Source: a virus (taxonomy: Duplodnaviria; Heunggongvirae; Uroviricota; Caudoviricetes). From it: a DNA stretch of 64,000 bases. The DNA lies in IMG/VR virus record IMGVR_UViG_3300032093_014924; one strand, written 5' to 3'. Of the stretch, positions 5,628 through 40,342 are shown piece by piece; positions within the stretch are counted from its first letter, which is position 1, and the number at the start of each line of letters is the position of its first letter. A program made the position numbers and the translations under genes. The notes under the pieces were generated by a model. The model did not search any database. It saw only the letters and a program-made list of their open reading frames with translations, and had not been told where the DNA came from.

Positions 5628-5731
5628 AAAATGTTTTAGTTGCGTGATATTTTTATCCTAAAATATTGTTGTAATTAAATATACATCAATTAGTTATAAA
5701 GATGTATTGCGCATAACCGTTAGCACCAATA

Positions 5732-6001
5732 CTACTTTTCATCTTCGTAGATTGGTATAAAGTTTTCTGGATTATACCCAACAATTTTTCTATGTTTATT
5801 ATCCTCTATATATTTTTCTTCCTTTAAATGTTGTTCTTCAAACTCTTGGTTTAGTTTAAGTAATTCTTTTTTCATTTCTTGTGGTAAAGAATCACTATCC
5901 AACATTTCTTGTCTAATTTGTTCGTGTTTTTGGGCTAATTTAAACCCATCTTCAATCATTTTGTTAATATCTTTTTCCATAATTTTTTTCAAATCTTTCA
6001 T
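5732..6001 (-). CDS. hypothetical protein (89 aa)
   Basis: ORF with a TATTTAT motif 16 nt upstream (6018-6024); sits between primase and exonuclease. Confidence 0.7.
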   Translation of the reverse strand: MKDLKKIMEKDINKMIEDGFKLAQKHEQIRQEMLDSDSLPQEMKKELLKLNQEFEEQHLKEEKYIEDNKHRKIVGYNPENFIPIYEDEK

Positions 6002-6035
6002 TATTTTATTTTATACATAAATATATAAAAAAAAG

Positions 6036-6986
6036 TTAAATCTCAAATTCAGATAATTTAGTAGCGGTCATTAATAATTTTACAATACCTTTATTACCTA
6101 ATAATTCATATATTTTACTTGGGTCATATTCGTCAGGACATTTTACTATCTTAATCCTACCATATAAATCACCAAAATTTAATTTTCGGTATATTTCTTT
6201 CGCATCATTATATGCGTCACCATCAAAAACTACAATAATATCACCACAAGCCTTATCATGTAACAAGTGTAACAAATTGTCAGATACATGTTTACCTAAT
6301 AAAGGAACTGAATTTGGAACTACTATGTGGTCAAAAACACCTTCAACCAAATATATATTTGAATCAAAATTCAATTTGGCTTCATTGAATATTATTTCAC
6401 TTTTCTCTGCGTCTGGATTTAAATATTTTAATTTAGTGTAGTTATTATGATACCATCTACCTATAAAATAATTTACATTATTAAATTGGTTATATGATGG
6501 TATAATAATACGATTTTTGTAATTTCCTTCTGTCGCATAACCAATATTATATTTCTCAATGATTTCTTCAGTTATGCCTCGTTTTTTTAAGTATTTTATT
6601 GCGATATTATAATCAATATCTTTTTTAACAACACCTGAAAGTTTTTTGTATTCTTTTGGTAATGAAACTGTTATCTTTTTTTCTTTATCTTCAACGTCAT
6701 TAAATTCAAAATTTAAAAAACTAAATTCATCTAATAATCGTCTATTACCATATCTTTTTATTAAAGTAGGTATTTTACCATGCATATTGTTGGTGTCTTG
6801 ACAGGCCCAACATTTAAATACACCAAATTTGTAATTTATTTCTAAATTACCTTTACCATCACCGTTATCAAGTCCTTTATCTTCCGAACAAGCAGGGCAA
6901 TCAAAAGATATTTGGTGATTATCTTCGTTATGTTTTCTATAATCACCTAAAAATTTTTCAAGTATGTTGATTAGATATTCATTCAC
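6036..6986 (-). CDS. DNA primase (T4 gp61/DnaG-like)
   Basis: Zn finger CPAC...CWAC, RIIIP, KYLNP, TOPRIM LVEGVFD and FDGD. Confidence 0.93.
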   Translation of the reverse strand: MNEYLINILEKFLGDYRKHNEDNHQISFDCPACSEDKGLDNGDGKGNLEINYKFGVFKCWACQDTNNMHGKIPTLIKRYGNRRLLDEFSFLNFEFNDVEDKEKKITVSLPKEYKKLSGVVKKDIDYNIAIKYLKKRGITEEIIEKYNIGYATEGNYKNRIIIPSYNQFNNVNYFIGRWYHNNYTKLKYLNPDAEKSEIIFNEAKLNFDSNIYLVEGVFDHIVVPNSVPLLGKHVSDNLLHLLHDKACGDIIVVFDGDAYNDAKEIYRKLNFGDLYGRIKIVKCPDEYDPSKIYELLGNKGIVKLLMTATKLSEFEI

Positions 6987-6991
6987 AAAAA

Positions 6992-6999
6992 CAAATATA
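6992..6999 (-). promoter_or_regulatory. Bacteroidota -7 promoter element TATATTTG
   Basis: TATATTTG 5 nt before the primase GTG start; no clear -33 element. Confidence 0.6.
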
Positions 7000-7008
7000 C
7001 TAATTTTA

Positions 7009-7650
7009 TCACCAAATTCCCATTTTTTTCATGTAGCCTATACAAGCACAGTATGCATCACTAACATCAAAATTCTCTTTTTTAAGTTTGTTGTTTTTAT
7101 CTAAAAACCATTTTATCTGTGGTTCTAATTCACATACTTTTTCAAATATAACCATTTTTTTATCTACGTTGTAGTCATACGCACCAAATAAAACTGGTTC
7201 ATTTTTAGCTATTTGTTTTTCAGTCAATGGTGTACCATCTTTTTTAAATTTTCTAATACCCATAAGTTCTGGAAAACCAAATTTTCTAGCATCATAAGAC
7301 GAAATGAAATCTGGTACAATCCCTAAAACATCAAAAACAGATTTAGATATCATCCCATTAAATCTTAATAATGTTGCAATAGTATATACGTTATTAGATT
7401 GTAATAATGGTTCTTCAATGATAACTCTAGTTATACCAAAATCTTTATATTTGATTAAAAATTCTTCATTAAACACCTCAACTTTTTTAAACAATTCCTC
7501 CATTTTATTTGTCGGTTTTGGTTTAATATTAGGTGTCACATGATGTAATAATTTAAGTTCTCCACTGTTACCATTATCTTGAAATAATGCAATACCGATA
7601 GTACTTGTACTTACATCTAACGATAAAATGAATTTTGGTTTGTTATCCAT
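7009..7650 (-). CDS. RuvC-like (RNase H fold) Holliday junction resolvase
   Basis: ILSLDVSTSTIGIA, VIIEEP and C-terminal DVSDAYC acidic triad pattern. Confidence 0.75.
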   Translation of the reverse strand: MDNKPKFILSLDVSTSTIGIALFQDNGNSGELKLLHHVTPNIKPKPTNKMEELFKKVEVFNEEFLIKYKDFGITRVIIEEPLLQSNNVYTIATLLRFNGMISKSVFDVLGIVPDFISSYDARKFGFPELMGIRKFKKDGTPLTEKQIAKNEPVLFGAYDYNVDKKMVIFEKVCELEPQIKWFLDKNNKLKKENFDVSDAYCACIGYMKKMGIW

Positions 7651-31897: not shown

Positions 31898-31950
31898 ATC
31901 TTTTTTATGTTTTATAATAAATACATTAAGAAAAAAAAAAACCACAAATA
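31798..31950 (-). repeat. ~154-bp cassette repeat copy A
   Basis: Near-identical to copies B and C. Confidence 0.95.
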
Positions 31951-31963
31951 TTTGTGGTTTTTT
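31931..31963 (-). terminator. rho-independent terminator after nrdA C-terminal gene
   Basis: AAAAAACCACAAA-TA-TTTGTGGTTTTTTTTTTT on the minus strand. Confidence 0.8.
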
Positions 31964-31985: not shown

Positions 31986-33080
31986 TTAACTTGAACAACC
32001 AAAACATTCAAATTGACTGTCGGTTGGTTTTTTGGTAACGGTTATTTGTGTTGAAGCTAATTTTGTATTAGTGTCAAGCTTTGATTTTGTTCTAGTATAA
32101 TAAACACCAGTTTTTAATCCACCTTTCCAAGCATACATTAATGCACTGGCAATTTTACCATATTTAGCATCAGAATGATAAACATTTAATGACTGTGATT
32201 GGTCAACATATTTGTTTCTAATTATAGCTAAATCTAATAAAACTCTTTGTGGTATTTCCCATACATCTTTATACCTATACCTAACCTCTTCAGGTATTTC
32301 AGTAATGTTCTGTATACTTCCCTTATTCTTAATAACCTTATCAATCATTTCAACATCCCAAAGATTATTTTCAAGCAATTCATTAACAAGATATTTGTTG
32401 ATAACCAAAAACTCACCTTGACCAACACGCCTTGTAAATAAATTTGATGTTACAGGTTCAAATGATTCAAAAACACCTAATAAAATCGCACTGGTAGCTG
32501 TAGGCATTAATCCTAATAACAAACTGTTATACAATGGTATTGGTTCTCCATTTGGTTTTGGTGACCATCCTTCAATATATGTTTCACCCTTTGAATATAA
32601 ACTACCTTCCCAAGCTGGATAATTAACACCAAGTTCTTCAGCAATTGTCATTGATTCAATAATTGCTGATTTATACATTGTTTCAAATATCTTATGTGTC
32701 CATTCTTTAGCTTCTTCACTTTCAAAAGATATTTTTTTCTTTGCAAAGAAATCAGCTAAACCAGCTACACCAATTGCTAATGCTCTTTGTTCTAAACCAG
32801 CAGATTCGCTCCATTCATCACTCCATTTATTTTTATTTATAACCTCATTTAATCCTCTAACCAATATCTTTGTTGATGTTTCTATTGTATCAATATCATC
32901 ATGTTCAGATAAATTAATTGATGCTAATGTGCATTGAGATGTTTTTCTTGGTGAGCTGGCCTGGAAAATTTCTGCACAGTTGTGGATAAGTATTCCATTT
33001 GCAAAAAAATTATTATTACCATCTATCGTTAAATCATATACTGGTAATGTTGTCTCGATTTTTCTTATTTTAATCCCCAT
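31986..33080 (-). CDS. nrdA: split-intein C-fragment (34 aa) fused to ribonucleotide reductase class Ia alpha C-terminal part
   Basis: MGIKIRKIETTLPVYDLTIDGNNNFFANGILIHN|CAEIF, then CTLASINL, ALAIGVAGLAD, LMPTATSA, DQSQSLN, GLKTGVYYTR, C-terminal ECFGCSS. Confidence 0.96.
   Translation of the reverse strand: MGIKIRKIETTLPVYDLTIDGNNNFFANGILIHNCAEIFQASSPRKTSQCTLASINLSEHDDIDTIETSTKILVRGLNEVINKNKWSDEWSESAGLEQRALAIGVAGLADFFAKKKISFESEEAKEWTHKIFETMYKSAIIESMTIAEELGVNYPAWEGSLYSKGETYIEGWSPKPNGEPIPLYNSLLLGLMPTATSAILLGVFESFEPVTSNLFTRRVGQGEFLVINKYLVNELLENNLWDVEMIDKVIKNKGSIQNITEIPEEVRYRYKDVWEIPQRVLLDLAIIRNKYVDQSQSLNVYHSDAKYGKIASALMYAWKGGLKTGVYYTRTKSKLDTNTKLASTQITVTKKPTDSQFECFGCSS
32979..33080 (-). mobile_element. 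split intein IntC (34 aa)
   Basis: Block F VYDLTI..NNNFFANG and block G terminal HN, followed by Cys+1. Confidence 0.95.
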
Positions 33081-33081
33081 A

Positions 33082-34119
33082 TTATTTTATTATTTCATTT
33101 ATGTTTGTTAATACTTTTTTTAGGTATACGTATCTTATTTTATTTTCATTACAATATTTTTTAGCGGCATTAATTTTCATTTCTTCATTTAATTTTCCTT
33201 TTACACCCCTAATAAACCCTTTAATCTCTAATAATATTTTTTCACCATTATATTCGATTAAAAAATCTGGTAAGTATAACGTACCGTTTTCCTTTTCAAT
33301 ATAAAAAGGTTCATAACTATATATTATATTATTTAGTTCTAAAAATTCTATTGTTTTAAATTCCCAAGAACTTCTATACCTTATTATACTTTTATTTAAA
33401 CAATTCTTTACTTTAATAAAACCAGTTTTAAAGAATTTTGTTGACCCCATATTTTCATTCCTATTCATGCTAATAGTTGATATTATTGACATCATTTTTG
33501 TGTGTATAGTATTTATATTTTCATCACATATATTAATATCATTAATTTCATTCTTAAAGTTTAAAAATATCGTTTCATTTAAATATTTATTAGATTTTAA
33601 AAAATTTTTAACCTTTTTTATCTTATATTGTTTTGATTTTCTTAAATCTGAAATTGTTAATCCATATAATTTATTTATTTCATCTTCCGTTTTTAATGTT
33701 GTATCTATGTTTTTATTATTTAAAAATTTTATTTTAAAATTAATACTAGAGTTTTGAATTTTTTTTGTTTCTCTAAACGAATCGCCTCTATTAATACCCT
33801 TCATTTTTATTTTCATCTTTTCAGAATGTTCTGGTCTTAATTTACCTTTACTATGATAACCCTTAAAAAAATTAACGCAGTCATCAGGCCATGCAAATCT
33901 ACCGTTCTTCCATATTTTTAATATGTTGTTATTTGAGTAACAATTCTTAAAATTATCAAATGTTAATACGTTATTTAAATATAAGTTTTTCAAAGCTTTG
34001 TGTTTTTGATATACATCTTTTATTATTTTATCAATATATTTAATTAATTCTGAATCAAATAACGTTATAAAATCTTTGTTATTAATTAATTCATTTATTT
34101 TTGTGTGTTTTTTTATCAT
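33082..34119 (-). CDS. free-standing putative homing endonuclease (TnsA-like PD-(D/E)XK domain, NUMOD3-like DNA-binding segment)
   Basis: C-term YRSSWE..YEP..YLPDFLI..LLEIKG; KGKLRPEHSEKMKIKMKG; lies between the two nrdA/intein halves. Confidence 0.82.
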   Translation of the reverse strand: MIKKHTKINELINNKDFITLFDSELIKYIDKIIKDVYQKHKALKNLYLNNVLTFDNFKNCYSNNNILKIWKNGRFAWPDDCVNFFKGYHSKGKLRPEHSEKMKIKMKGINRGDSFRETKKIQNSSINFKIKFLNNKNIDTTLKTEDEINKLYGLTISDLRKSKQYKIKKVKNFLKSNKYLNETIFLNFKNEINDINICDENINTIHTKMMSIISTISMNRNENMGSTKFFKTGFIKVKNCLNKSIIRYRSSWEFKTIEFLELNNIIYSYEPFYIEKENGTLYLPDFLIEYNGEKILLEIKGFIRGVKGKLNEEMKINAAKKYCNENKIRYVYLKKVLTNINEIIK

Positions 34120-34171
34120 ATAAATTGGTCTTTTTAATAAATATTTTAATTTATTAAAAAGACCAATTTAT
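34120..34171 (-). promoter_or_regulatory. perfect 23-bp hairpin ending at -1 of the endonuclease start, with a TATTTAT late-promoter-like motif at 34143-34137
   Basis: Arms 34120-34142 and 34149-34171 are exact reverse complements with a 6-nt loop. Confidence 0.88.
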
Positions 34172-34178
34172 GTTTAGG

Positions 34179-35660
34179 TTATTGTAATATTTTTAACATA
34201 TCGTTTTCAATTAAGTCTTTAGCCATAACATACCCTCTATTAATTGTATATATTTTATGTTCTGGTGTGCATATTAGTTTTTTATTTGTTTTATCATCTA
34301 TTATTTCTAAAACTTCTGCATCTTTACTAGTCATAGCTGATGCTAATAGCTGTTTGTATTCTATAATATCGTTTTCAATATTATAAGATTTAACTAATAT
34401 ATTCTTATTGACTTTAAATAATTCATTTAATGTTTTGATATCAACCTTATGTTCTTCATTATCTAAAATTATGTCTATTATTGAATCTTCAGATATGCAT
34501 AGATTACTCATTTTAATTGGACCAATATTTGATTGCATATTTCTTTTGTTAGCGTTGTCTTTATACATAACATAAGGTCTGCCACTCTCAACTTGAGATT
34601 TAATAATAGAGTCAAATATTTCTTTAGGATTTACTTTCTTACCTATACCTAGATTAACAGCTTTTTCATACTCTTCATTAAATTCAGTACCATATAAATC
34701 ATATAATGGTCTTAATCCAGCTTTTTTAATATCATTAGGACAAAATAAATACCAATCACCACCAGTTTCTAATCTCTCCATAAACAAATCATTTATTACA
34801 ACAGCTGTAAATAAATCACGTGTTCTTAATTGTTCATCCCCAATTGGTAATGTTAATTCTAAGAAATCAATAATATCTTTATGCCAAACAGATAAATATA
34901 AAGCGCAACTACCAGAACGAGAACCTTGTTTATAAAATCTCATTTTTGATTGTACCATGTCAGCAAATCTAACAATACCACCAGCATTACCTTGAAAAGA
35001 TTCTACAACACTTTCTTTGCTTCTTAATGGGTCAACCAATAACCCAATACCAGAACCTTCTTTAGATGCTGCTGATATCATCGTTAATGTGTTTTCTATT
35101 TCTTGAAAGCTATCCCCTTCTAAATGTGTTAAGTTACAAGAAATCATACCACCTCGTTTATCAATACCAGCATTGGTATAAATTGGTGTGGCAAAATTAA
35201 TTCTTTTTAAATTAAGCTCATTTATTAAATTATTTCTTAACTCTTCATTATCACCATGTAAATGATTTGCAACCCTTTCATACATACATGATGGTAATTC
35301 AATAGGGTTTTTATTAGAATCTCTTTTAGAATATTTAGTTAAAAAAGTTGTTGCAGCAAAAAAATCATATGTTAAATCAACTGGTTTTAATTCTTTACCA
35401 ATTAATTTAGATTGTCTACTTAATAAAATCCTACCACCAAGTAATGAATAATCTGGGTGTTGTATTATCTTGTCAGCCGCTTTAAACGCTATTATCTCGT
35501 CAATCTCAGTTGTTGTTATGTTATCCGTTATCAATGGTATAACCTCTTGAAATAATGAATCAGAATCAATTTTTAATCCATTTGATTGACCTTTTATTCT
35601 ACTTAGAATCTTATTTGGCATAAATGCCTGTGTCGTTTTATCTCTCTTTAATATTCTCAT
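34179..35660 (-). CDS. nrdA: ribonucleotide reductase class Ia alpha N-terminal part fused to split-intein N-fragment (106 aa)
   Basis: ATP-cone-like start, FATPIYTNAG, ISCNL, QGSRSGSCALYL, ESGRPY, then KMSNL|CISEDS...CTPEHKIYTINRGYVMAKDL...stop. Confidence 0.96.
   Translation of the reverse strand: MRILKRDKTTQAFMPNKILSRIKGQSNGLKIDSDSLFQEVIPLITDNITTTEIDEIIAFKAADKIIQHPDYSLLGGRILLSRQSKLIGKELKPVDLTYDFFAATTFLTKYSKRDSNKNPIELPSCMYERVANHLHGDNEELRNNLINELNLKRINFATPIYTNAGIDKRGGMISCNLTHLEGDSFQEIENTLTMISAASKEGSGIGLLVDPLRSKESVVESFQGNAGGIVRFADMVQSKMRFYKQGSRSGSCALYLSVWHKDIIDFLELTLPIGDEQLRTRDLFTAVVINDLFMERLETGGDWYLFCPNDIKKAGLRPLYDLYGTEFNEEYEKAVNLGIGKKVNPKEIFDSIIKSQVESGRPYVMYKDNANKRNMQSNIGPIKMSNLCISEDSIIDIILDNEEHKVDIKTLNELFKVNKNILVKSYNIENDIIEYKQLLASAMTSKDAEVLEIIDDKTNKKLICTPEHKIYTINRGYVMAKDLIENDMLKILQ
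34182..34499 (-). mobile_element. split intein IntN (106 aa)
   Basis: Starts at Cys1 (codon 34499-34497); block B TPEH; ends at a stop codon with no endonuclease domain. Confidence 0.95.
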
Positions 35661-35667
35661 ATAATTA

Positions 35668-35699
35668 CAAATTTACTACTTTTTTTTAAATATAACAAA
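35668..35699 (-). promoter_or_regulatory. Bacteroidota-type promoter for nrdA (TTTG-N20-TAAATTTG)
   Basis: Exact 20-nt spacing; ATG 7 nt downstream of the -7 element. Confidence 0.8.
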
Positions 35700-35772
35700 G
35701 AAACAAATAACAAATAAAATATAAAAAAAAAATTATTATTTATAAAAAATCAATACTTTTTTTCTTTTAACA

Positions 35773-35779
35773 TATTTAT
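35773..35779 (+). promoter_or_regulatory. putative late promoter motif TATTTAT upstream of the tail tube gene
   Basis: Same motif recurs upstream of many structural genes, in the sense orientation. Confidence 0.45.
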
Positions 35780-35834
35780 TATTAACAATAACAAAAATAA
35801 AAAAATAACAATTAACTAAAAAAAATAAATTACT

Positions 35835-36323
35835 ATGGCCGATTTACTCATGAAAATGCCACTACCTTATGAACCTAAAAGAAAAAATAGGTGGCTTATT
35901 ACTTTTCCAGCAGATTTAGGTATTCAACAATGGTGGTTGTCTTCAGCTTCAAGACCATCAATAACACAAAATGAAACTGAAATAGCATTTTTAAATACCT
36001 CAACTTGGGTTGTGGGTCGTTTTAATTGGGAAGCTATTGATGTTACTTTCCGTGACCCTATCGGACCTTCAGCTTCTCAAGCTATTATGGAATGGGTTCG
36101 TTTACACTCAGAATCAATTACTGGTAGACAAGGTTATGCAGTTGGTTATAAAAGACCTGTAGAATTGGAAATGCTTGACCCTACTGGTGTTGTGGTTGAA
36201 AAATGGTTACTTGATGGTACTATGTTAACTAACGTTAATTTTGGTGACCTTTCTTTTGAAGATGATGGTATTGCTGAAATTACAGCAACTTTAAGATTTG
36301 ATAGAGCAATACTCCTTTTTTGA
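35835..36323 (+). CDS. tail tube protein (T4 gp19-like)
   Basis: YEPKRKNRW, ASRPSIT, GRFNWEAIDVTFRDP, MEWVRL, TGRQGYAVGYK, LEMLDPTGVVVEKW, TLRFDRA. Confidence 0.92.
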   Translation: MADLLMKMPLPYEPKRKNRWLITFPADLGIQQWWLSSASRPSITQNETEIAFLNTSTWVVGRFNWEAIDVTFRDPIGPSASQAIMEWVRLHSESITGRQGYAVGYKRPVELEMLDPTGVVVEKWLLDGTMLTNVNFGDLSFEDDGIAEITATLRFDRAILLF

Positions 36324-36359
36324 TTTTTTGATTATCAACTACTTACGTATTTTTTTAAT

Positions 36360-36389
36360 AAAAACTCTTTCAAACGAAAGAGTTTTTTT
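36360..36389. terminator. bidirectional rho-independent terminator between convergent genes
   Basis: AAAAACTCTTTC-AAAC-GAAAGAGTTTTTTT. Confidence 0.82.
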
Positions 36390-36409
36390 ATTTTAATATA
36401 ATTAAGTGT

Positions 36410-36493
36410 ATGTCAGAATCAGAAATTATGTTATCTAGAGGTATAAATAAGATATATGATTGTGGTACTGTTAAATGGGTAATTAATTACTAA
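36410..36493 (+). pseudogene. 27-codon remnant resembling the C-terminus of a phage homing endonuclease (..EIM..RG..KIYDCG..KW)
   Basis: Manual translation MSESEIMLSRGINKIYDCGTVKWVINY*; family assignment (Hef-like) is from recall of the IYDCG motif only. Confidence 0.5.
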
Positions 36494-37376
36494 ACGTGTC
36501 AAAAATTTTTCTATGGAACTCATCGTAGGTTAAATCTGGTGATATTGTTACAATAGGGTTAATTTTTATTTCTAAATTTATTGGTAGTTCTTTATTTAAT
36601 ATTTTTGCTGCCATATATCTATGATGACCATCTTCTATATAAAACCCTGGTTTTTTATTTTTAATTTTTAAAAATGAGACATCAATTGGTTCTGATAAGT
36701 TTATTTTTTTAGCCCATTCTTTTGGTGATAAACCGCTTTTTTCTATTTCATATACAACATTTTCCAAATCGGCTAACCATTTTAATTTTAATTCTTTTGG
36801 TTTTAAGGTTTTAATATCTTCTTCAGAAAAACCATGTGCTAATCTATCTAATAGTTCTATTGATAAACCACCACTTCTAAGTAATTGTTCTGATGTTTCA
36901 TATTTTGATAATTCTTTTTTTAAATCATTAATGTATAAATCATTTTTAAATTTAAAAACATCATTATATAATGTGTTTTCAGTTATTAGTTCGTCAAAAA
37001 TAACATCCCATTTGGTTAGAGGTATCCACCCATATTTTGTTTTTATTTCTAATTTATTTACTGGGATATTTTCAAATGTTATATATTCATCACCTTTATT
37101 ATTTTTTATTCTGTTAGACAATTCAAAATCATCAGTTAAAATTGTTCTTAATATTACCATTCTATCTTTACCACCTTTAGACATGGCATAATATTTTGCA
37201 TAATCAATATCGTTTGTGAAGCTAATTGAAGGTTTTATTTCACCAACATTATTTGTTTTAATATAACCATCTTTTTTTATATTGTTTGCAGCACCTTTAC
37301 TAGTCCCATGATAAAGATAAATCTGTTCATTATTATTGGTAATTTCCCTTAATAGTTTTCTTATTAGTTGTTTCAT
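36483..37376 (-). CDS. leader-bearing protein: ADP-ribosyltransferase-like domain + ParB/Srx-like domain
   Basis: MKQLIRKLLRE leader; LYHGT..SISFT..YAKYYA..DEY; internal LITE; IEDGHHRYMAA. Confidence 0.72.
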   Translation of the reverse strand: MKQLIRKLLREITNNNEQIYLYHGTSKGAANNIKKDGYIKTNNVGEIKPSISFTNDIDYAKYYAMSKGGKDRMVILRTILTDDFELSNRIKNNKGDEYITFENIPVNKLEIKTKYGWIPLTKWDVIFDELITENTLYNDVFKFKNDLYINDLKKELSKYETSEQLLRSGGLSIELLDRLAHGFSEEDIKTLKPKELKLKWLADLENVVYEIEKSGLSPKEWAKKINLSEPIDVSFLKIKNKKPGFYIEDGHHRYMAAKILNKELPINLEIKINPIVTISPDLTYDEFHRKIFDTFSN

Positions 37377-37391
37377 TTATCTTTTTTTTTA

Positions 37392-37901
37392 TTAAAATAA
37401 ATCAATATAATATTTTTGGGTGAATTCTTCTATTTTAAATAGGGTTCTGTTCATATCATTTATTATTCTATCTAATTCGTTTTTTGGTATTTCTTCATTA
37501 TTTTTTACCATTATTTCTTTATTATAAGATAGGGTTTCATTTAAACCTTTCATCGCAATAATAAAAACTCTAAATGTTAAATCATCCATTTCTTTTGGTT
37601 GCATTGTATGAAATTGATTTTTTATAATAAATTTATGAAACGTATTATCATTTATTTTATGTGGGTAATAAATGATTTCAGATGAGATGTTTAACTGTGG
37701 GAATTTTATTATTTCATCACCCATCATCATTGTTACGTTTTCATTATAAACTACTCTTTGTGCTTCTAATCTTTTTTCGTCTCTAGGGTGTTTAAATATA
37801 TTATATTCTTTAAGAAAAGGGATTCTTTTAATTAATATATCTTTAATATTATTGTTTGATTCTAAGTTTTCTCTTAGTAATTTTTTAATTAATTTTTTCA
37901 T
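37392..37901 (-). CDS. leader-bearing hypothetical protein
   Basis: Start moved to MKKLIKKLLRENLE (37901), just after the upstream stop. Confidence 0.75.
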   Translation of the reverse strand: MKKLIKKLLRENLESNNNIKDILIKRIPFLKEYNIFKHPRDEKRLEAQRVVYNENVTMMMGDEIIKFPQLNISSEIIYYPHKINDNTFHKFIIKNQFHTMQPKEMDDLTFRVFIIAMKGLNETLSYNKEIMVKNNEEIPKNELDRIINDMNRTLFKIEEFTQKYYIDLF

Positions 37902-37905
37902 GTTA

Positions 37906-38481
37906 TTAATGGTCTCCGACAATAGCGTTAATTGGTTTTTTTAATTCTTCACCATTTATTTTAATTATTTTCACATTAGTACCTTTATTTAGCGCACATT
38001 CCCATTGGTCTTCACCATACCAAATAAATGAATGAAACCCATAAATCCAATCTATATCTTTTGGGTTAATAATAGCTTCTAATATATAAGGTTCACCCGT
38101 TTTCATCATTTTTATATTTGGGTGTCGCTCTCCGTATGCCCCAACGCCATTTTCATCAAATGACCAATGCTTACCTATATCTTTTATATCTAAATCTTTT
38201 ATAGAATTTAATTTAATTAATCTATAAATTGTTATTTTATTACTGTTTTTTAATTCATTATATTTATCAACATATAGTTCTATTCTTTCTATATAATTAT
38301 CTCTAGAGTATTCTGCTTGTATATCATTTTTATCTTCTTCATACGCATCAAAAGATTCAGCAACGTCTTCTATATTTTCATAAGCGTATTTTGTCGCTGT
38401 TTCGTAGTTAGATAAAAATGAATCATATTCATTATATTCATTTAAATTTTCTCTTAATATTTTTTTAATTAAATTTTTCAC
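37906..38481 (-). CDS. leader-bearing R-S-E-type ADP-ribosyltransferase-like protein
   Basis: MKNLIKKILRENLNE leader (GTG start); TIYR, GKHWSFD, EDQWE in ART strand order. Confidence 0.6.
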   Translation of the reverse strand: MKNLIKKILRENLNEYNEYDSFLSNYETATKYAYENIEDVAESFDAYEEDKNDIQAEYSRDNYIERIELYVDKYNELKNSNKITIYRLIKLNSIKDLDIKDIGKHWSFDENGVGAYGERHPNIKMMKTGEPYILEAIINPKDIDWIYGFHSFIWYGEDQWECALNKGTNVKIIKINGEELKKPINAIVGDH

Positions 38482-38482
38482 G

Positions 38483-39322
38483 TTACTTTTCTTTACTCAT
38501 TTTATATAAATTAATTTTTTCTGATGTTCCAATAAGATTGCCGCTATCATCATAGTTAGAAATAGTTTGATAGGTATATTTAACATATTCTGAACCTTCT
38601 TTAATTAAATTTGTACAATATTTATATAATGTATTAGACTGTGTGTCATTAGTTTCTTTAATAATTTCTTCAGCTGCTCTTAACCCACCATTAGCTAAGT
38701 TTATACTAGCCTCACCAAATGTTTTAATGTCTTCTGGGTTAACAACACCATGTGACTCTCTTAATCTTATTAAATATATTATTGCTTTAGTTACCATGTT
38801 AGTATCTCTTAAATGTTCTGACCCTCTTTCTTTCATATCCATTATAAAACCTATGGCAATATTTATATGCATTTCACTTATTGGTTGATTAGTTGTACTA
38901 GCGTATGCTAATGAAGCTGAAATAATTAAAAAAACCATAACTAATATAGTTAAGTTAATAAGTTTAAATACTACAGGGTATTTTTCTCTAAAAGATAGAA
39001 CTGTTTTTGATACCCAATTAATAAAAGTTTTTAATTTTTCTAATATTTTTAATCCTATTTTAGATGCGTTTAACAAAAAAGTGTTTAACACTTCTATTAT
39101 CTTTTGGTTTATTTTTTCAGATATATTTGAAAATATATTTTCATTAATTGTTAAATTTAATTCTTTAATATATTCTTTTTCACTTATTTTATTTTCAATA
39201 AAATTTTTTGTTAATTTATGTTCTATTAAGAATTCTTTATTAAACTCAATTTTAGTGTGATTTTGTTGTTCTTCTAATAAGTTCTTAAACTTATTCATAA
39301 ACATTCTCATTTCTTTGCTCAT
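38483..39322 (-). CDS. hypothetical protein with I/L-x-E-rich N-terminus and one hydrophobic helix
   Basis: LLEE, LIE, FIE, ISE, IKE, INE in the first ~70 aa; LINLTILVMVFLIISASLAYA; TATTTAT at 39340-39346. Confidence 0.75.
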   Translation of the reverse strand: MSKEMRMFMNKFKNLLEEQQNHTKIEFNKEFLIEHKLTKNFIENKISEKEYIKELNLTINENIFSNISEKINQKIIEVLNTFLLNASKIGLKILEKLKTFINWVSKTVLSFREKYPVVFKLINLTILVMVFLIISASLAYASTTNQPISEMHINIAIGFIMDMKERGSEHLRDTNMVTKAIIYLIRLRESHGVVNPEDIKTFGEASINLANGGLRAAEEIIKETNDTQSNTLYKYCTNLIKEGSEYVKYTYQTISNYDDSGNLIGTSEKINLYKMSKEK

Positions 39323-39356
39323 AATATATTAATTTTTATATAAATATATTAACAAT

Positions 39357-39382
39357 AAAAAAACCCACTTTAAAGTGGGTTT
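39357..39382 (-). terminator. rho-independent terminator after nrdB
   Basis: AAACCCACTTT/AAAGTGGGTTT followed by a T tract on the minus strand. Confidence 0.8.
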
Positions 39383-39388
39383 ATATTT

Positions 39389-40342
39389 TTAGAATTCTTC
39401 ATCAAAAATACCATCCATTGTTTTTGGTATTTCAATTCTTGTGTATTCACCTTCTCTTTTTTCAAAGAAATTATTTTTTGTTGATAGACCTATTCTTGAC
39501 ATAAAATCAAGTGGATTTGAGACCATAAATTCTCTTTCGCAACCAAAGTCATTTAAAACGATATCTGTAACATATTGTATATATTTTAACATATCATTTT
39601 TTGTCAGACCTTGAAGACCATCTGGCATACTTTCTTCAACAAATGTTTTTTCTACATCATAGCAACCAAGAATTATATTTCTAATTTCTGTTTTATTTAG
39701 CTTATATTCTTCTTTTAGATAGTTTTTATATAAGTTTAATGCGAACTCGTAATGAAATGTTTCATCTCTTAATATAAGTTCATTCATAGCTGCTAAACCT
39801 TGCATTTTATTTCTACTTCTAAACCAGAACACACCAGAGAACACACTAGCAAATGAAATACCTTCAACACAAGCAAAAGCTAATAATCTATGTGGAAATG
39901 ATGGGTGTTGTATCCATTTTTCAGCCCATTCAGCTTTTTTAAATACAGCTTTGTTTGTTTCCATCGCATTAAATAAATCTTCTTTTTCTTGTAGATTTTT
40001 TATGTAGGTATCGATTAATAATGAATAACCATTTGCATGAACTTGTTCAATAAATGTTTGGTGTCCATAAAAATATTGTGCCTCTAACAATTCAACTTCA
40101 TTTAAAAAGTTTGTTGCTAAGTTATCAATAACGAGACCATCAGATACAGCAAAGAAAGCTAAGATGTTTTTAAGATATGTTTTTTCATTATCTTTTAGTT
40201 CATCGAATTTATCTTTACTCAAATCAGTTTCTTCAGCAACCCATGTTTGGGATTCTGCTTTTTTATACATTTGCCATAAATCATTGTGTATGATTGGGAA
40301 AATGGAATATCTTTTTTTAATTGTTGAATCTTTCAGGTACAT
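39389..40342 (-). CDS. nrdB: ribonucleotide reductase class Ia beta subunit
   Basis: FFAVSDG, EQVHANGY, FACVEGISF, NELILRDETFH, NFFEKR di-iron/tyrosyl motifs. Confidence 0.96.
   Translation of the reverse strand: MYLKDSTIKKRYSIFPIIHNDLWQMYKKAESQTWVAEETDLSKDKFDELKDNEKTYLKNILAFFAVSDGLVIDNLATNFLNEVELLEAQYFYGHQTFIEQVHANGYSLLIDTYIKNLQEKEDLFNAMETNKAVFKKAEWAEKWIQHPSFPHRLLAFACVEGISFASVFSGVFWFRSRNKMQGLAAMNELILRDETFHYEFALNLYKNYLKEEYKLNKTEIRNIILGCYDVEKTFVEESMPDGLQGLTKNDMLKYIQYVTDIVLNDFGCEREFMVSNPLDFMSRIGLSTKNNFFEKREGEYTRIEIPKTMDGIFDEEF

Follow-up and report, generated by a model that had tools for sequence, protein, structure and literature searches.

We analysed a 64,000-nt stretch of phage DNA (hereafter, the window) from the IMG/VR viral record IMGVR_UViG_3300032093_014924, and examined an interrupted gene for the large subunit (NrdA) of ribonucleotide reductase (RNR). 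The contig of origin spans 108,651 bp and is estimated to be 31% complete, which indicates a large phage; the source is a large, AT-rich, uncultured freshwater phage. A blastn search of 50,697 GenBank phage records returned no cultured relative, the sole match being a 156-nt RNR stretch of a Bacillus phage. The locus consisted of three minus-strand open reading frames (ORFs): 35660..34179 (493 aa), 34119..33082 (345 aa), and 33080..31986 (364 aa). The first ended with KMSNL, followed by CISEDS...CTPEH...MLKILQ and a stop codon. The third began with MGIKIRK...NNFFANGILIHN and continued into CAEIFQ. Between them lay an intact gene for a free-standing endonuclease, the insert that an earlier sequence-only reading of the window had left undescribed. 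This order on one strand, namely N-extein with the N-terminal intein half (IntN), free-standing endonuclease, and C-terminal intein half (IntC) with C-extein, is that of the so-called fractured genes. Hence, the locus is very probably a fractured class Ia nrdA, in which a mobile cassette made of the N-half of a mini-intein, a PD-(D/E)xK homing-endonuclease gene, and the C-half of the intein sits directly before the codon of the thiyl-radical cysteine. The features of the locus are summarized in Table 1.

Table 1. Features of the fractured nrdA locus and its surroundings (positions in the window).
Feature	Position	Strand	Description
nrdA N-extein	34500..35660	-	387 aa; ATP-cone, all-alpha domain, first barrel half; ends ...KMSNL; Pfam PF03477, PF00317, PF02867 positions 2-213
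IntN	34179..34499	-	106 aa and TAA stop; Cys1 is protein residue 388; block B T465-P-E-H468; Pfam Intein_splicing 1-93
Spacer hairpin	34120..34171	-	Perfect 23 bp, in the 59-nt spacer between the IntN and endonuclease genes
Homing-endonuclease gene	33082..34119	-	345 aa; C-terminal PD-(D/E)xK nuclease domain
IntC	32979..33080	-	34 aa, MGIKIRK...FFANGILIHN; ends His33-Asn34; Pfam Intein_splicing 125-155
nrdA C-extein	31986..32978	-	330 aa and stop; +1 Cys first (CAEIF); Pfam PF02867 positions 212-523
Terminator-like hairpin	31936..31963	-	12 bp followed by a T-run; closes the three-gene unit; from a consensus scan only
Promoter candidate TAAATTTG	35668..35675	-	-7 box TAnnTTTG, read from the sequence; presumed function
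Tract identical to L003/L004	32941..34520	.	1,580 nt, 100% identity; IntN, spacer, endonuclease, IntC, 21 nt of N-extein and 38 nt of C-extein
nrdB (RNR small subunit)	39512..40309	-	Pfam PF00268, E 3.6e-81; match coordinates converted from the genome record

The first and third genes shared the RNR barrel domain at the Pfam positions given in Table 1. In uninterrupted homologues, the N-extein continued directly into the C-extein (SNLCIEIF), without gap or overlap. Residue 1 of the C-extein aligned with residue 429 of human R1 and residue 428 of yeast Rnr1, which are the thiyl-radical cysteines; by this alignment, the +1 Cys of the C-extein is the thiyl-radical cysteine. The C-extein also retained QCTLAS, GVYYTRT, and a C-terminal CFGC. 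Assignment to class Ia was based on the ATP-cone, all-alpha, and barrel domains, the thiyl Cys loop N-x-C-x-E, the YY pair, the C-terminal Cys pair, and the presence of an NrdB partner. The partner gene, nrdB, was located about 4 kb upstream of nrdA, and no second RNR large subunit was found in the record, which covers 31% of the genome. The sequence-only reading had described nrdA as two genes with an IntN of 106 aa, an IntC of 34 aa, and a product of 387 + 330 = 717 aa, and all of these coordinates and counts agreed with ours. Its placement of a naturally split intein directly before the thiyl-radical Cys also held, as indicated by the alignment above and by the insertion point reported by Dassa et al. 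(2009, PMC2677866).

Both intein halves carried the residues that serve only in splicing. Cys1, the N-terminal nucleophile of the intein, directly followed the N-extein (KMSNL/CISEDS), the T-x-x-H motif of block B was T465-P-E-H468, which aligned with TPDH of the NrdJ-1 intein, and IntC ended in His-Asn followed by Cys (GILIHN/CAEIF). Cys1, T-P-[ED]-H, and the terminal HN with the following Cys were kept in all of the about 30 homologues printed. Each half has a gene of its own with stop and start codons, and the halves are thus separate polypeptides. The ratio of nonsynonymous to synonymous substitution (dN/dS) was roughly estimated by the Nei-Gojobori method from comparison of the window with two relatives. 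For the intein, it was 0.10-0.16 with IntN and IntC taken together and 0.12-0.18 with IntN alone; the exteins gave 0.05-0.16, and the endonuclease gave 0.19-0.25 over its whole length and 0.11-0.16 over its nuclease domain. At the sequence level, the intein, exteins, and endonuclease all appear clearly constrained by purifying selection.

The complex of IntN and IntC was predicted with a score of 0.85 (best of three controls, 0.00), with at least 94% contact agreement over three runs and a partner predicted local distance difference test (pLDDT) value of at least 76. Of 78 solved complexes, 51 reached the mark set for this score, as did 2 of 108 mismatched pairs; the pass may reflect mere likeness to solved inteins. 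Judging from their sequences, the two products would be joined by trans-splicing to one NrdA. Since the break falls within the catalytic finger loop, we infer that ligation is needed for NrdA activity, unlike in the intein-less split NrdA of Aeromonas phage Aeh1.

The nearest solved structure was the NrdJ-1 split intein (PDB 8ubs; E 2.3e-14), with about 39% identity over 89 aligned residues. The two inteins share CTP[DE]H..YT.NRGYV and NFFAN.IL.HN, and both reside in a fractured phage RNR gene. NrdJ-1 differs in that its host gene encodes a class II RNR, that it is inserted one residue downstream, after the catalytic Cys, and that its +1 residue is Ser. The fractured NrdA loci NrdA-1 to NrdA-7 reported in 2009 have their integration site directly N-terminal to the thiyl site and a three-gene layout (PMC2677866). 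The present locus shares with them, and with NrdA-2 in particular, the class I RNR host gene, insertion directly ahead of the thiyl Cys (SNL/C), a layout of three genes on the same strand, and a hairpin ahead of the endonuclease start. The intein itself is homologous to that of NrdA-2, with an IntN of 106 aa and an IntC of about 34 aa. Taking the NrdA-2 sequence from the supplement of Pinto et al. and counting by hand and eye, we found an identity of about 45% for IntN (48/106) and 59% for IntC (20/34), and the C-extein begins with CAE here and CNE in NrdA-2. NrdA-2 itself was absent from our database matches. The sequence-only reading had stated that the pair closely resembles the NrdA-2/NrdJ-1 type: membership of this group stood, on the match to 8ubs and the SNL/C junction, and the identities to both inteins are too low for a close resemblance. 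NrdA-2 (junction SNL/CNE) has been reported to splice in cis at about 89%, to splice in trans in vitro, and to be orthogonal, but not to belong to the group of five inteins that were exceptionally fast (Pinto et al. 2020, PMC7090010). The suggestion that the present allele is fast and orthogonal is speculative.

We searched for the relationship of the endonuclease by fold and by family profile. In its AlphaFold model (pLDDT 87), residues of about 226-345 adopted a restriction-endonuclease fold. VIA-align matched the model to TnsA (1t0f; Z 8.7, root mean square deviation (rmsd) 2.8 Å, 104 aligned residues), Vsr (1cw0; Z 7.0, rmsd 3.8 Å, 100 aligned residues), and I-Bth0305I (3r3p; Z 6.6, rmsd 3.5 Å, 86 aligned residues). 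The top rows of a Foldseek search were all PD-(D/E)xK nucleases, none of which reached E 0.001. A phmmer search of the PDB with the single sequence gave noise only, and a profile of the family matched T7 endonuclease I there (E 1.9e-4). Residues E253, P284-D285, and E298-x-K300, first seen in four sequences, were invariant in 21 homologues, so that the enzyme has both the fold and the E...PD...(D/E)xK residue set of this superfamily. Pfam detected Phage_endo_I in 15 and TnsA-like_N in 13 of these 21 members, and Vsr, DUF559, GIY-YIG, and HNH in none of them.

Two other affiliations were considered and rejected. Enzymes of the EDxHD family are defined by a composite motif in which a catalytic Asp is combined with a His as general base and with a further Asp next to it (PMC3239194). 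Membership of this Vsr-like family was ruled out, as the nuclease domain of the 21 homologues contains no invariant His and the Pfam families Vsr and DUF559 were unmatched. GIY-YIG membership was ruled out by the lack of a Pfam GIY-YIG match among the 21 members; the same search does detect GIY-YIG in the endonucleases of two other loci of our set (L007 and L032). GIY-YIG and EDxHD are the two endonuclease types that the 2009 report named for fractured genes (PMC2677866). The absence of a conserved His from the nuclease domain indicates a canonical PD-(D/E)xK enzyme similar to TnsA and T7 endonuclease I, which is neither of these two types. With I-Bth0305I and the EDxHD enzymes, it has in common a two-domain design, in which an N-terminal recognition region precedes a C-terminal nuclease of restriction-endonuclease fold; it differs from them in lacking the defining His general base and in having E...PD...ExK instead (PMC3239194).

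No Pfam family matched the N-terminal region of about 225 residues. A separate AlphaFold model of these 225 aa (pLDDT 87) showed no convincing similarity to a known fold: the best VIA-align match (Z 5.9) was on a generic helical hairpin, and Foldseek gave no E below 3.6. A NUMOD3-like motif around residues 93-112 was a first impression and was confirmed by no search. A PD-(D/E)xK homing endonuclease, I-Ssp6803I, is known; it is small and intron-encoded, not a 345-aa free-standing enzyme.

The word-indexed search placed the family in 26 clusters, and 1,107 representatives were found at E ≤0.001, 26 of them below 1e-30. No hit of the word-indexed search bore a functional name, and the family is unannotated in public databases. 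Every member whose context was inspected, namely nine IMG/VR loci and three more distant ones, sat between RNR split-intein halves; one distant member was apparently located in a class II-like RNR. Beyond the papers of 2009-2012, we found no report of a free-standing PD-(D/E)xK endonuclease in a split intein, in a literature survey whose incomplete coverage makes it weak evidence of novelty. It is quite possible, though slightly less likely than not, that the family is an undescribed lineage of homing endonucleases, which would combine a PD-(D/E)xK domain with a recognition region of about 225 aa that so far matches no fold. Such a lineage would be dedicated to split inteins at the catalytic Cys of RNR and would cut intein-free nrdA, so that intein and nuclease home as one composite element, a process that would still be ongoing in lake phages, as suggested by the 1,580-nt identical tract described below.

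The spacer hairpin had a folding free energy of -25.2 kcal/mol (z -9.4), and none of 200 shuffled sequences was equally stable. Its 3' arm stops 2 nt ahead of the AUG of the endonuclease gene, so that the hairpin lies in the 5' untranslated region of that gene, as in fractured genes. A hairpin was found at the equivalent position in seven related loci, being weak in two of them (-1.4 and -3.5 kcal/mol), and comparison of the window with one of the relatives (L005) revealed paired changes in both arms. The coding strand has no U-tract behind the hairpin, which fits translational gating, as described for mobE of phage Aeh1 and for the 2009 loci, better than termination: the hairpin probably gates translation of the endonuclease. 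At the other end of the endonuclease gene, the IntC gene starts 1 nt past the stop codon. The same start, 1-2 nt after the stop, was seen in six of the seven related loci examined, and only L097 showed an overlap.

A heptamer, TATTTAT (34143-34149), lies at the junction of the loop and the 3' arm of the spacer hairpin and recurs in L005, L066, L092, L006, and L095. By analogy with the T4-type late promoter of the 2009 loci, it may be a phage promoter element. Upstream of the locus, TAAATTTG forms a Bacteroidota-type -7 box 7 nt before the ATG of the first nrdA gene and is the likely promoter. Matches to sigma-70-type promoters were no commoner than in shuffled sequence.

The distribution of the cassette was investigated in 80 IMG/VR loci with phage NrdA genes whose N-exteins were 73-87% identical to that of the window. 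nrdA was uninterrupted (SNLCIEIF) in about 68 of them, and the same cassette as in the window was present in one (L066). Eight loci (L032, L033, L034, L081, L039, L049, L043, and L080), with N-exteins 75-83% identical to that of the window, contained another, different split intein, which is inserted one codon further downstream and so follows the catalytic Cys (SNLC/CLDGE...VLVHN/CEIF). This is the insertion point of the NrdJ-1 type, but in NrdA. Four of the eight (L032, L033, L034, and L081; at about 5662-7360) had a large ORF in the intein gap, and the only one scanned with Pfam, that of L032, was a GIY-YIG endonuclease with an I-HmuI NUMOD-like domain. L039 had the split intein without an endonuclease, L049 retained only an 85-aa endonuclease remnant, and the contigs of L043 and L080 ended before the intein gap. 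A third break point in the nrdA clade was noticed in L075 (4501-8397), where a 660-aa N gene with an IntN-like tail is followed by a 412-aa ORF without a Pfam family and a 209-aa C piece. Between lineages, the intein was 52-60% and the endonuclease 47-51% identical, versus 24-39% for the exteins.

Recent movement was suggested by comparison of the window with two closely related contigs, L003 and L004. These were 95-97% identical to the window overall and showed no mismatch over the 1,580-nt tract in Table 1. Outside this tract, differences amounted to 1.5-1.7% in the adjacent extein and to 5.4-7.4% in the far N-extein and upstream DNA. The chance of an identical run of this length at the mean rate is about 1e-20. 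An identical tract amid such divergent flanks points to recent transfer as one unit, and these sequences are most simply read as the result of a cassette recently transferred whole, together with short co-conversion tracts. On this reading, the endonuclease would mobilise the intein and the nuclease together into cassette-free alleles, its presumed target.

On the basis of these results, the following course of events can be proposed. Transcription would probably start from the promoter just upstream of the first nrdA gene, and NrdA-N-IntN (493 aa) and IntC-NrdA-C (364 aa) would be translated separately. IntN and IntC would then associate and carry out protein trans-splicing by means of Cys1, the TPEH block, His-Asn, and the +1 Cys. 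The product would be a NrdA of 717 aa in which the N-L-C-A-E finger loop is whole and which acts together with NrdB of the phage; if the two proteins stayed unspliced, the catalytic loop would be interrupted and would carry 140 extra residues. The 23-bp hairpin would bury the start region of the endonuclease gene and probably hold down its translation. When made, the endonuclease would most likely cut cassette-free nrdA alleles, and repair would copy the whole cassette in as a unit.

The two NrdA pieces might instead assemble non-covalently, as in phage Aeh1, with the intein halves acting as affinity handles without splicing. In Aeh1, a split NrdA is functional without ligation (PMC3045599), and our model of the intein complex indicates association only, not chemistry. 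In the window, however, it is the catalytic finger loop itself that is broken, L being parted from the thiyl Cys, and 140 foreign residues would stay there; the splicing-only residues are kept in all homologues under purifying selection, and NrdA-2, which has the same insertion site, does splice. We therefore regard assembly without splicing as highly improbable. More improbable still is that nrdA has been inactivated by the insertion and is decaying while the phage relies on RNRs of the host or others. The available sequence amounts to only 31% of the genome, and nrdA is uninterrupted in most relatives; yet all three ORFs were intact in every copy seen, dN/dS was 0.05-0.25 for the exteins, intein, and endonuclease, the same layout was maintained across lineages with exteins only 24-39% identical, and all RNR catalytic residues were present.

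Phage homing endonucleases are often carried by group I introns, as is the EDxHD family in recA, so the insert could be a self-splicing intron whose removal from the RNA would yield a contiguous mini-intein gene. The Rfam scan of the locus detected no intron or other RNA family, with no group I or II match even at E up to 1. Moreover, the IntC gene opens with a conserved start (MGIKI) of its own, 1-2 nt past the endonuclease stop in the related loci examined, and the IntN stop is conserved; removal at the RNA level is thus very remote. That a metagenome-derived contig may be chimeric was also taken into account; the sequence-only reading had named the stop at 34179 and the insert as possible assembly artefacts. 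The identical IntN-endonuclease-IntC cassette was found, besides the window record, on contigs from two separate ENA assemblies, and the product of the N gene on six contigs. Across 12 studies, 20 runs, for the most part freshwater or lake metagenomes, held at least 85% of the sampled cassette words, and 15 of these 20 runs were not possible source samples. Diverged relatives keep the same three-gene layout. Because the cassette recurs in independent assemblies, runs, and diverged relatives, an artefact has a negligible probability and is excluded; the stop codon and the insert are genuine.

A mobile, trans-splicing cassette in nrdA is accordingly the reading that we prefer, and several observations weigh against it or its parts. 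The Pfam Intein_splicing matches of the two halves scored 26.9 and 25.6 bits, under the gathering cut-off of 35.8, as is expected because each is half a domain. The dS values were 0.7-1.4 or higher, near saturation, which makes the dN/dS values rough. The record covers about 31% of the genome and a host RNR is likely to exist, so that dependence of the phage on this RNR, or of its dNTP supply on trans-splicing as inferred in the sequence-only reading, is no more than a possibility. Ordinary recombination between two cassette-bearing phages could also be the source of the identical tract. Two details depart from the 2009 loci (PMC2677866), where a hairpin precedes the endonuclease in 15 of 16, the endonuclease and IntC genes overlap by 6-69 bp in 15 loci, and the spacer is 27-51 nt. 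The spacer in the window is longer, at 59 nt, and a 1-nt gap takes the place of the overlap, which is a frequent, not a universal, feature.

The nrdA-a/mobE/nrdA-b locus of phage Aeh1 (PMC3045599) resembles the window in that a phage nrdA is cut in two by a free-standing homing endonuclease, and in that a hairpin sequestering the start region limits translation of this enzyme. It differs in that it has no intein, its halves assemble non-covalently, its endonuclease is of the HNH type, and its break point is elsewhere. The arrangement in the window has been known since 2009, and the locus is a new allele, not a new kind. What is more original is the family to which the endonuclease belongs, along with the evidence from phage populations that the cassette is still moving.

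Split inteins from fractured phage genes (gp41-1, NrdJ-1, IMPDH-1, and NrdA-2) are widely used tools for protein ligation, and an allele as diverged as this one, with 45-59% identity to NrdA-2, is a reasonable candidate for an orthogonal pair, as a candidate only. Close relatives of the window show all states, namely the empty site, the window cassette, a second split intein that is displaced by one codon and accompanied by a GIY-YIG endonuclease, and that intein with its endonuclease lost or degenerated. Side by side, and together with the tract of perfect identity, they provide a natural system for the joint movement of a split intein and a free-standing endonuclease.

The region between the first nrdA gene and nrdB (35661-39511) contained several unrelated ORFs on both strands; nrdB abuts nrdA in L005 and L006. 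Additional inteins were noticed in related sequences. P0003, a near relative (636 aa, on a 2,012-bp contig), combined a 93% identical IntN with a contiguous mini-intein at GGMIS/CNL, a site that is intein-free in the window, and the +1 Cys of this mini-intein may be another active-site cysteine. In a phage with the same RNR cassette (L009:995-2101 and L010:322-1428), a 368-aa product of DnaB-type helicase had faint intein/HINT matches, and its gene may be another intein-bearing or fractured replication gene. Finally, a RecA_N ORF with weak DUF559 and faint Vsr matches (L007:1-1035) adjoined a fractured RNR gene with a GIY-YIG endonuclease and may be a recA associated with an EDxHD-type endonuclease.

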